From Chitinophaga pinensis (GTDB lineage Bacteria; Bacteroidota; Bacteroidia; UBA7662): a DNA stretch of 64,000 nucleotides. Below are positions 45,999 to 48,689 of this stretch, one piece after another. The DNA lies in NCBI GenBank assembly GCA_945874665.1, contig CAMCHJ010000009.1, positions 18,112 through 82,111 of the forward strand. Direction: 5' to 3'. The notes below the pieces were generated by a model. The model was not told where the DNA came from, made no database searches, and saw only the letters and a program-made list of their open reading frames with translations. How positions within the stretch are numbered: position 1 is the stretch's first letter; each line of letters opens with the position of its first letter. The position numbers and the translations under genes are program-made.

Positions 45999-46931
45999 AT
46001 GGCACAGCAGCATCATTCTGAACGCACCCTCATCAGTTTTGACTGGGCATTGAAGCGTTTGCTTCGGAACAAGGCGAACTTTGTAATTCTTGAAGGCTTT
46101 TTAACGGAATTGTTGTATCAAGACATTCAGATTGTGAATCTCTTGGAATCGGAAGGCAATGCGGATGCAGAAGAACAGAAAATAAATCGCGTAGATTTAT
46201 TGTGCTTAAACCACTTACAAGAGCTCGTGATTATTGAGGTGCAATACCACGACGAGGTAGATTACTTTCAGCGCATCTTATTCGGCGCTTCAAAGCTCAT
46301 TACCGACTACCTCGAACGGGGTGCCAAATACGGGGAAGTACGCAAGGTATATTCGGTGCATATCCTTTACTTTGACCTTGGCCAAGGCAGCGACTACGTT
46401 TATCATGGGCAACTCGCATTTAAAGGCCAGCACAAGCAAGACATCCTCGCCTTGAGCAAGTTACAGCGCAAAAAATATGGAAAAATGCTCGCGGGAGAGC
46501 TGTTTCCGGAGTATTATTTACTAAAAATCAATAACTTTGATGAAGTAGCGCGCAACACGCTCGACGAATGGATTTATTACCTCAAAACGAGCACCTTGCC
46601 CAAAACCTACCGGGCTAAGGGTCTTGCCGAAGTTGCTGAACAGTTAAAAATCGACGATATGTCACCCGAAACCAAAGCCAAATACCTCGAACTCATCAAA
46701 GGCACCAATATCACCGAGTCGATGATTGAGACTGCTTATGAAAACGGCGCTTTGGAGGGGGAAGAGAAGGGAATGACGAAAGGAATGGTAAAAGGGCAAG
46801 ACGATCAAATTCGAACAACTGTATTAGAATCCTATGAAAATGGCCTTGATATCCAGTTGATTGCAAAAATAACAAAAAGACCAATGGATGAGGTCAAATC
46901 GATTTTAATCGAAAATGGCCGCATTAATTAA
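45999..46931 (+). CDS. Rpn family recombination-promoting nuclease / PD-(D/E)XK nuclease family (putative transposase)
   Basis: ISFDWALKRLL; NRVDLL; VIIEVQ; LDEWIYYLK; tail GxEKG-like repeats and GLDIQLIAKIT. Confidence 0.9.
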   Translation: MAQQHHSERTLISFDWALKRLLRNKANFVILEGFLTELLYQDIQIVNLLESEGNADAEEQKINRVDLLCLNHLQELVIIEVQYHDEVDYFQRILFGASKLITDYLERGAKYGEVRKVYSVHILYFDLGQGSDYVYHGQLAFKGQHKQDILALSKLQRKKYGKMLAGELFPEYYLLKINNFDEVARNTLDEWIYYLKTSTLPKTYRAKGLAEVAEQLKIDDMSPETKAKYLELIKGTNITESMIETAYENGALEGEEKGMTKGMVKGQDDQIRTTVLESYENGLDIQLIAKITKRPMDEVKSILIENGRIN

Positions 46932-47054
46932 GAAGAGATGTCACCCGAAATCAAAGCCAAATTACACGAACTCATCAAAGGCACCAACATCACCGAGTCG
47001 ATGATTGAGACTACTTACGAAAACGGCTATATGGAAGGGGAAGAAAGGGGAATT
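46659..47054 (+). repeat. Direct repeat of 117 nt (46659-46775 and 46938-47054), 14 mismatches
   Basis: Manual alignment starting ATGTCACCCGAAA in both copies; about 88% identity. Confidence 0.95.
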
Positions 47055-47081
47055 GGAAAAAGGAATACAAAAAGGGTTTGA
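46938..47081 (+). CDS. Stand-alone duplicate of Rpn C-terminal tail (47 aa, possibly frameshifted)
   Basis: MSPEIKAKLHELIKGTNITESMIETTYENGYMEGEERGIGKRNTKRV*; starts 6 nt after the rpn stop. Confidence 0.55.
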   Translation: MSPEIKAKLHELIKGTNITESMIETTYENGYMEGEERGIGKRNTKRV

Positions 47082-47199
47082 AATAGACCAACTGACGGCT
47101 CAAGTAATTATCATTTAATTCCTTTATTCCGCGAACGCTTCGAGAAGTTTTACTAGAATACCTTATTTTGCAATGACCAAAAGTCAGCGTTGAATTTAA

Positions 47200-48309
47200 A
47201 TGGATAAGGAAGTATTCGCCAATATCAGCAAAATCATAGAGCGCGACAGTAAGTCGACCACCTACAAATTTGCACTTTTACGTGGGGTGATTGACATTAT
47301 TGAAGACAACTCCCCTTACATAACCCAAGTAAGTGGCCGTGTTCAGATACCAACTGGCTTGCTGATAGAAAAATGGCTGATTTATTATTATCCAATCTTG
47401 CAGTCTGAGGCATCGATACCACAAATTAATGGCGATGTAAACCTGGCCTTTGGCCTTCAACTGAAAGGAATAATCAACAAATATGAATTAAGAGGTGGCT
47501 TCTCTGCCTTTTACAACGATTTGAAAAGTAAAGGCATCCCGAATGACCTCCACAGCGACTTTTTTGAACTCATCAAAAAAATCCGTGACACCATTACCAA
47601 AATGCCGATGAAGTATATCGGCCGGTCGATCAGCAACGACTTTTATTCTATTTTCGACTATGAAAACCCGAGAATGACCCCGCCAGTCCATTTGAACATC
47701 GAATACCTCATTCAGCAAGGTGGCACATTCAGCATCCCGCTCGAATATTTTGAAGCCTTTAAAGTTTTTGGAAGTTTTATAAATGGTCAAAACTCCATCC
47801 TCTTCAAATGGGCTCAGTTTTCGGTGAATGCCTCAGGCCAACATTTGGCAATCGAAAACGTGATTAATGAGGTACTTAAGAGTCCAATTACCGCCCGTAA
47901 CATCGACGAATCGAAAAGGATTTATCGAGATATTTTGAAGCAAGAGGGCAAGGTGCATTGCGTTTGGACTGGCAAGCAGCTTTTCAACTATGACATTGAC
48001 CACGTTATTCCTTTTTCCGTTTGGAAAAACAATGATCTGTGGAATTTACTTCCGTCCGATGCCAAGATCAATAACCAAAAACGGGATAGGATTCCATCAC
48101 CTGCGTTGATTGAAAAGCAAAAAGACTTGATTTTAAATTACTGGCAAATCATCCAGGAAAGTCAAGACCAACGGTTTCAGCGCGAAATGCAGGTGGCTTT
48201 ACTCGGTAATCGTGCCTTTTCTTCTTGGAAAGAATCGGGCTTAACCCAGCTTCAAAGCAGCTGCCATTATTTAATCGAAAACCGGGGATTTGAAGCATGG
48301 AGCATTTGA
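47200..48309 (+). CDS. HNH endonuclease domain protein
   Basis: N-terminal KSTTYKFALLRG; C-terminal CVWTG...DIDHVIPFS...DLWNLLP...NNQKRD. Confidence 0.85.
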   Translation: MDKEVFANISKIIERDSKSTTYKFALLRGVIDIIEDNSPYITQVSGRVQIPTGLLIEKWLIYYYPILQSEASIPQINGDVNLAFGLQLKGIINKYELRGGFSAFYNDLKSKGIPNDLHSDFFELIKKIRDTITKMPMKYIGRSISNDFYSIFDYENPRMTPPVHLNIEYLIQQGGTFSIPLEYFEAFKVFGSFINGQNSILFKWAQFSVNASGQHLAIENVINEVLKSPITARNIDESKRIYRDILKQEGKVHCVWTGKQLFNYDIDHVIPFSVWKNNDLWNLLPSDAKINNQKRDRIPSPALIEKQKDLILNYWQIIQESQDQRFQREMQVALLGNRAFSSWKESGLTQLQSSCHYLIENRGFEAWSI

Positions 48310-48689
48310 ACAACACCAACGATTGTCCATTTTGCGGGACGCTCACCGACCGCAGCACCTTGTTAGAAACAGACATGGCTTTTGCTATTTTCGATAAATA
48401 CCCTGTAAATGCAGGCCACATCTTAATCATCCCAAAAAAGCATTGTGCTAATTATTTCGATTTAACAGCTGAGGAGCAGGCGGCATGTTGGCAACTACTC
48501 AACGAGGTTAAAAACTTGGTTGCAGCTGAATTTAACCCCGATGGCTTTAACGTAGGCATCAACATAGGCGAAAGTGCTGGTCAAACTGTACCTCATGTGC
48601 ACCTTCACCTCATTCCTCGTTATAACCACGACGTGCCTGATCCACGAGGCGGCGTGAGGGGTGTGATTCCTGCACGGCAGAAGTATTGA
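48297..48689 (+). CDS. HIT family hydrolase
   Basis: CPFC; DKYPVNAGHILIIP; AGQTVPHVHLHLIPR; DPRGGVRGVIP. Confidence 0.93.
   Translation: MEHLNNTNDCPFCGTLTDRSTLLETDMAFAIFDKYPVNAGHILIIPKKHCANYFDLTAEEQAACWQLLNEVKNLVAAEFNPDGFNVGINIGESAGQTVPHVHLHLIPRYNHDVPDPRGGVRGVIPARQKY

Follow-up and report, generated by a model that had tools for sequence, protein, structure and literature searches.

A probable decaying RpnS cassette downstream of an Rpn-family nuclease gene, and the recombining cassette arrays of its Bacteroidota relatives

Rpn proteins (RpnL) are toxic nucleases that are blocked by RpnS, a small protein translated from an internal start of the same gene (Zhong et al., 2023, PNAS, PMC10400941). 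The specificity of RpnL and RpnS for each other is set by the number of four-residue repeats in the helix that they share, and in E. coli an RpnS whose repeat number is unlike that of RpnL does not neutralise it (PMC10400941). Separate RpnS genes located downstream of rpn (rpnSs) have also been described, namely ypaA (rpnE-Ss) and, in some strains, rpnC-Ss, and such genes have been reported to disappear either through deletion or by becoming fused with the N-terminal domain of rpn (PMC10400941). A stand-alone downstream copy of RpnS, such as the one considered here, is thus of a kind already published. Comparable variation of a four-residue unit (TAEL) is found in the Type I restriction specificity subunits EcoR124I/II (cited in PMC10400941). 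A search of the literature that followed Zhong et al. (2023) for work on RpnS or rpnSs returned only that paper and its commentary. The 64,000-nt stretch of DNA analysed here (the window) carries an rpn gene whose C-terminal part is followed by a second, diverged copy of the same module (Table 1).

A different set of arrays lends itself to comparison, that of the orphan toxin-CT/immunity cassettes located downstream of cdiA, rhs and similar polymorphic-toxin genes. These cassettes usually lack a start and are silent; a 5' block of homology, conserved between them and the main gene, allows homologous recombination to exchange the variable C-terminal part, and the arrays vary by strain. The rpn arrays described below resemble them in that a shared 5' block allows replacement of the tail and in that the array varies between strains. 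Unlike orphan-CT cassettes, however, the rpn cassettes are complete small ORFs that bear a start, and the part that is exchanged is a regulatory or antitoxin-like tail rather than a toxic domain. The likeness to EcoR124I/II is restricted to four-residue changes in a long helix that retune specificity, given that these subunits belong to another protein family with another function and have no downstream cassette array.

Table 1. Features of the rpn locus (window coordinates).
Feature	Coordinates	Strand	Description
rpnL	45999..46931	+	310-aa Rpn-family PD-(D/E)XK nuclease; presumed toxin/defence effector
Intragenic RpnS-like module	46659..46931	+	90 aa from Met221; long helix with 4-aa repeats, then helix-turn-helix (HTH)
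Second arm of direct repeat	46932..47053	+	First arm 46653-46774; 122 nt, 88% identity
47-aa ORF	46938..47081	+	Putative 'type E' rpnSs cassette remnant, helix 1 only
A5 run	47057..47061	+	Presumed 1-nt insertion shifting the frame
+1-frame continuation (GIQKGFEIDQLTAQVIII, then stop)	47062..47118	+	Cassette homology ends; HTH-coding half absent

The parallel with the rpnE-ypaA and rpnC-Ss pairs of E. coli is extensive, as in both cases an RpnS copy that stems from the tail of the upstream gene lies directly 3' of rpn on the same strand, the number of 4-aa repeats varies, and loss occurs by deletion or fusion (the latter represented here by locus L118, see below). Several features nevertheless set the present locus apart. 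The nuclease belongs to the PDDEXK_2 (PF12784) branch, in a Bacteroidota metagenome-assembled genome (MAG), and not to PF04754; the module starts about 32 residues before the repeats, as opposed to 8-20 in the published set; relatives carry arrays of up to three diversified cassettes instead of one copy; and the window copy is truncated and frameshifted. Additionally, Pfam DUF4351 (PF14261), the domain used for the stand-alone RpnS of E. coli, is not matched by the tails, being absent from 4 of them at E up to 10 and from the 47 tails of our profile (A3, see below) at E up to 0.01.

The upstream gene encodes a protein with the N-terminal PD-(D/E)XK domain of the Rpn/YhgA-like clade. Its residues 14-237 match the Pfam family PDDEXK_2 (PF12784, E 2e-20) and its residues 14-302 match NCBIfam TIGR01784, titled 'Rpn family recombination-promoting nuclease/putative transposase', with 57 bits against a cutoff of 52.1. 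The sequence contains D65 and E79-V-Q81, the latter corresponding to the ExQ motif, which we take to be an Rpn signature. A phmmer search of the PDB with RpnL gave no match, and none of the PADLOC models matched the window Rpn. The genome also has a second rpn paralogue (contig C4, 66% identity), which lacks a copy downstream.

The internal ATG of rpn that opens the C-terminal module lies at 46659, one nucleotide before the position (46660) given in an earlier reading of the DNA made from the letters alone (hereafter, the sequence-only reading). The repeat units of this tail are EEKG, MTKG, MVKG and QDDQ. A profile built from 47 Rpn tails (A3) matches, over the HTH part, 7TH0_A ('Recombination-promoting nuclease RpnA'), the crystal structure of E. 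coli RpnA-S (E 6.6e-6), and an AlphaFold2 model of the tail places helices at residues 3-60, 65-72 and 76-85 (mean pLDDT 73, about 90 in the C-terminal 40 residues), a predicted fold that agrees with the one long and two short helices of published RpnS. Taken together, the profile match and the model indicate that the tail is homologous to the three-helix RpnS module. A Foldseek search of the PDB with the tail model gave no significant match, 7TH0 being unlisted and a resolvase HTH being the top local match, and the Pfam matches of the A3 tails were to generic HTH families only. As in other members of the Rpn family, the tail repeats vary between close strains. The rpn tail of L122, a counterpart of the locus from an independent assembly (Logan SRR24908211), is 12 aa longer than that of the window owing to three 4-aa units (MEQG, IVQG and IVQG; window 46761-46808 compared with L122 4686-4994), the N-domains of the two proteins being 98.6% identical, and the difference is a natural case of the expansion by 4-aa repeats known from the Rpn proteins of E. 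coli.

Met221 would be the start from which RpnS is translated separately, as all the duplicated cassettes begin exactly there; every one of the stand-alone cassettes of relatives begins at the Met221 equivalent. These starts thereby provide independent evolutionary support for Met221 as a real RpnS start in Rpn proteins of the PDDEXK_2 type. When 1.84 billion representative proteins were searched with a profile, 31,316 matched at E up to 0.001, and about 30 of the best 150 were stand-alone proteins of 75-115 aa starting exactly at the module boundary. Met occupies this boundary in the window lineage, in Saprospiraceae and at a small number of other loci (e.g., L051, L069, L070 and L078), and Leu does so in most other Bacteroidota Rpn tails (e.g., ...DNLSEEE...; tails of L036-L115).

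A repeat search of the region found one long direct-repeat family, whose two arms are those listed in Table 1. Counted from the internal ATG of rpn (46659-46775) and from the ATG of the copy (46938-47054), the arms differ at 14 of 117 nt (88.0% identity), and the copy starts 6 nt after the rpn stop (46929-46931). A DNA search of the 2.29-Mb draft genome found only the rpn tail and the copy itself (E 6e-40), and thus the match between the two far exceeds chance. The rpn tail and the copy differ in 12 codons, eight of them with non-synonymous changes (T5I, Y9L, L10H, A26T, A31Y, L32M, K37R and M39I). Read as it stands, the copy ends at 47081; its +1 frame reads ...ELEKGIQKGFEIDQLTAQVIII up to a stop and ends at 47118. 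Our own count agrees with the sequence-only reading, which had reported the repeat with its length, identity, mismatches and ATG, seven of the substitutions (M39I being the one added by the recount) and the continuation of the frame upon removal of one nucleotide. Its assignment of the copy to the C-terminal, RpnS-like module of Rpn likewise stands.

Like the published rpnSs genes, the window copy lies directly 3' of rpn on the same strand and is homologous to it from the iTIS-equivalent Met; the complete ORF comprising helix 1, repeats and HTH, which is present in G003, L116 and L123, is absent from the window copy. Its homology to intact cassettes ends at about 47065-47118. The window is collinear with G003, a MAG of the same genus ('Sphingobacteriaceae bacterium C1_concoct.bin.73'), between 45933 and about 47065, and then not again until priA (48751). 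The copy retains helix 1 in full, with three repeat units, and its motif GYMEGEERGIGKG is common to P0011, a relative of the full-length type that continues into the HTH, and to P0012, which lies on L122. When aligned with L122, the window is one base longer at GGAATTGGAAAAAGG, a site where P0011 reads GIGKG and L122 reads GIAKG in frame, and hence the simplest account of the frameshift in the window copy is one A too many in the run at 47057-47061, although this indel could instead be a sequencing error. The L122 copy keeps its frame over 54 aa up to a TAA, the counterpart of which is CAA in the window, and both copies are without the HTH-coding half. Two of the replacements in the window copy, T5I and A26T, are unique to it among 13 copies and affect positions that are invariant in the 12 others. 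Over their first 39 codons, the window and L122 copies differ by two synonymous and three non-synonymous changes, giving an omega of 0.36 that, being derived from only five substitutions, cannot separate constraint from neutrality. The corresponding omegas are 0.01 for GT, 0.07 for the rpn N-domain and 0 for HNH.

The sequence-only reading had proposed looking for arrays of rpn and tails in related genomes, and such arrays were found in G003, L116, L117, L118 and L123, as well as in the Saprospiraceae loci L040, L042 and L045. In G003, the GT-priA interval contains an rpn orthologue, whose protein is 89% identical along its full length and 95.8% identical in the N-domain (tblastn), followed by three complete tail ORFs of 91, 88 and 79 aa, each of which runs from the Met221 equivalent and starts either in an ATGA overlap with the preceding stop or after a 6-nt spacer. 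A search of a protein collection with the window tail returned 13 proteins, 12 of which are 54-91 aa long, the remaining one being a 138-aa rpn fragment. The metagenome contigs that carry these proteins represent the same priA-adjacent locus, with priA 97.7-97.8% identical to that of the window (protein, tblastn). In L116, rpn is followed by three cassettes (81, 80 and 83 aa); the 83-aa cassette alone follows rpn in L117 and a 299-aa rpn in L118, and L123 has rpn and a 79-aa cassette. At each of the three Saprospiraceae MAG loci, the local rpn has given rise to one or two stand-alone tails. Tail-only copies occurred at 4 of the 80 loci from the genome scan, tandem full rpn genes being present at some others, and all four tail-only loci belong to the window lineage or to Saprospiraceae, i.e., to groups with Met at the module boundary. 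On a further short contig (L121), an indel in the rpn N-domain (870-941, compared with L116 4143-4167) leaves the gene caller with only an 88-aa tail ORF; this may be a locus where the nuclease is dead and RpnS persists, or else a fault of the assembly.

The tails fall into at least five types (A to E), of which A, C and D, together with a variant of A (S80), were found both fused to a nuclease and as free cassettes. The window rpn tail is of type C, the same type being free in L116 as cassette S83, and a type D tail is found on the partial rpn P0006. Identity over the first 99 nt is 89-99% when the 13 copies from the various genomes are compared, whereas the 3' halves are far more diverged. 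The spacer between the conserved ...EG and the [LIF]xxT[VIT]L motif comprises 4, 12, 16 or 28 residues, and therefore the cassettes differ by multiples of four residues. The spacer of RpnL is 12 in G003 (cassettes 16, 12 and 4), 12 in L116 (cassettes 4, 4 and 16) and 16 in L123 (cassette 4). As the spacer of the free cassettes is mostly unlike that of the resident RpnL, the repeat-number rule of E. coli (PMC10400941) suggests that these cassettes may not be simple spare antitoxins.

Intact cassettes are under purifying selection. The stand-alone type D orthologues of G003 (S3) and L123 (S79) have an omega of 0.18 (15 synonymous and 12 non-synonymous changes), and those of L123 and L116 an omega of 0.20. 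These values, together with the start codons that overlap or abut the preceding stop, argue for intact cassettes being translated proteins rather than silent ones, which speaks against the silent cassette envisaged by the sequence-only reading. A scan for sigma-70 promoters and terminators gave background levels only, with a model that is ill-suited to Bacteroidota promoters.

Exchange of cassettes is documented by two near-identical strains. The flanks of L116 and L118 are 99.1-99.5% identical, and the rpn tails of both loci were aligned with the L116 cassette S80. Up to column 45, the L118 rpn tail equals the L116 rpn tail at 9 of 9 informative columns, and from column 93 on it equals S80 at 37 of 37. 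L118 is thus a single-crossover recombinant in which the nuclease domain has been fused to a cassette, the crossover having taken place within a 47-nt identical stretch with loss of the two intervening units. In L117, the two middle cassettes of L116 are missing, and the flanks are 99.0-99.9% identical. Decay of cassettes recurs as well: at a paralogous locus of G002, the downstream tail is interrupted by an in-frame stop at codon 56, after which the HTH is otherwise intact. The genomes of this family frequently contain Rpn pseudogenes and fragments (G000 contig C1:507886-508068, L004; G010 C4, L016; and loci of G001, G004 and G016). They include N-terminal pieces with stops, and L016 is an N-terminally deleted rpn with a complete tail.

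Window positions 46938-47123 are probably a decaying rpnSs cassette left behind in a recombination-prone array. By rpnSs cassette we mean a stand-alone, antitoxin-like C-terminal module (RpnS) that immediately follows a gene for an Rpn-family nuclease. In this lineage, the priA-adjacent rpn is followed by a variable array of such cassettes, each composed of a conserved 5' segment of about 100-110 nt (helix 1), a spacer that varies in steps of four residues and a divergent helix-turn-helix. Unequal homologous recombination in the conserved 5' segment would add, delete and fuse cassettes, and a fusion would exchange both the RpnL tail and the intragenic RpnS within it. On the model of their homologues RpnS and RpnSs in E. 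coli, intact cassettes would be translated into small proteins, which would pair with the tail of RpnL and modulate the toxic nuclease. The window cassette has lost its HTH half and carries a presumed 1-nt insertion in the A-run, and the locus keeps only rpnL with its intragenic RpnS. The cassette is most likely non-functional, and it is unlikely to serve as a working antitoxin or as a useful donor because it is truncated, frameshifted and without the HTH half. An origin by recent duplication of the window's own tail is ruled out, since the copy bears 5' marks typical of cassettes (KAKLHE), together with a type E motif, both of which occur in other genomes as well.

The retention of the ATG and of a 47-aa ORF, with a 54-aa ORF in frame in L122, implies that a helix-1-only peptide could still be made. 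Such a mini-RpnS, of 47 aa, or of 59 aa should the extra A be a sequencing error or be bypassed by +1 slippage at AAA-AGG, would pair with helix 1 of RpnL or RpnS as a spare antitoxin or as one of altered specificity, a reading that comes near to the orphan antitoxin of the sequence-only reading. The remnant keeps the whole of helix 1 with three repeat units, as well as the ATG and the 6-nt spacer seen at G003 S2, and the dimer interface of E. coli RpnA-S is its long first helix (PMC10400941). We nevertheless regard a functional peptide as unlikely, as the HTH half, the part homologous to 7TH0, is missing, the frames end differently in the two genomes (by a frameshift in the window and by a TAA in L122), two unique replacements affect positions that are invariant in 12 other copies, and non-synonymous changes are not depleted among the five substitutions that separate the window from L122. 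The orphan antitoxin proposed for this copy is accordingly retained as a minor possibility only, in the form of this peptide.

Alternatively, the copy might be kept as a silent donor or target of recombination, crossovers with it altering or truncating RpnL and RpnS as a switch. The idea that a cassette can recombine into rpn holds for the family, given the L118 recombinant; crossovers in exactly this segment are documented in relatives, and the window offers two directly oriented stretches of 117 nt that lie 279 nt apart and are 88% identical. For the window, however, the same idea finds no support, because crossing over with the remnant would leave RpnL with a frameshifted tail devoid of the HTH, a loss without exchange. 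Moreover, the 5' segment of the remnant is the most diverged of all copies (89-93%), which implies a lower efficiency of recombination, and there is no sign of selection for its retention, so that this role appears quite improbable. An assembly artefact, to which the repeats of a 35-contig draft genome assembled from a metagenome would be prone, is the least likely explanation and a very improbable one, since L122 has the same order of GT, rpn, short tail, HNH, HIT and priA, is 97% identical across the stretch and repeats the truncated architecture; related arrays are also present in many other assemblies. The sequence-only reading had named such an artefact as an outcome that would undo its proposal, and the independent assembly shows otherwise.

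If the window copy is a decaying cassette, the segment itself matters little and should be annotated as a pseudogene-like remnant and not as a gene. Its relatives, by contrast, add to the picture known from E. coli. Bacteroidota have multi-cassette arrays of diversified stand-alone RpnS genes with tightly coupled ORFs, their spacers come in four-residue units, and a clean natural recombinant is found between near-identical strains. These arrays, together with the recombinant, make the 'fusion/deletion' route proposed for the turnover of Rpn tails directly testable. A more speculative possibility, to which we give only tentative credence, is that the rpn locus constitutes a cassette-switching system comparable to pilin or orphan-CT cassettes. 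Expressed and diversified RpnS cassettes (spacers of 4, 12, 16 and 28) would serve as a reservoir from which recombination, possibly stimulated by Rpn itself, re-tails RpnL and its intragenic antitoxin together and so changes the specificity of a defence nuclease within a population, the window being a burnt-out version of such a system.

Between the remnant and priA, the window contains overlapping HNH (369 aa, PF13395) and HIT (130 aa, PF01230) genes at 47200-48689, and the HIT protein matches a ThsC-like HIT model of PADLOC (E 6e-15). The pair is missing from the priA locus in G003, L116 and L123 and is present at other loci in G002 and G004 (73-76% identity), and it therefore behaves as a mobile two-gene module in a variable hotspot. 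Comparison of its boundary with the G002 and G004 copies found homology limited to the coding regions and thus gave no lead on the event that truncated the cassette.

Tail-like modules also occur outside the arrangement of one module per ORF. P0014, P0018, P0019 and P0023 are among proteins with 4-11 tandem tail-like (HTH) modules per polypeptide, e.g., one of 739 aa with 11 matched stretches, and they look as if cassette arrays had been fused into repeat proteins. P0013 (71 aa, on a 734-nt contig) is identical over its first 27 residues to the start of an Rpn tail (MSPETKAKYLELIKGTNITESMIETAY) and continues with unrelated sequence (LLSTPANREWLLESLAQADRGEL...), a junction that may represent another breakpoint inside the conserved 5' segment.
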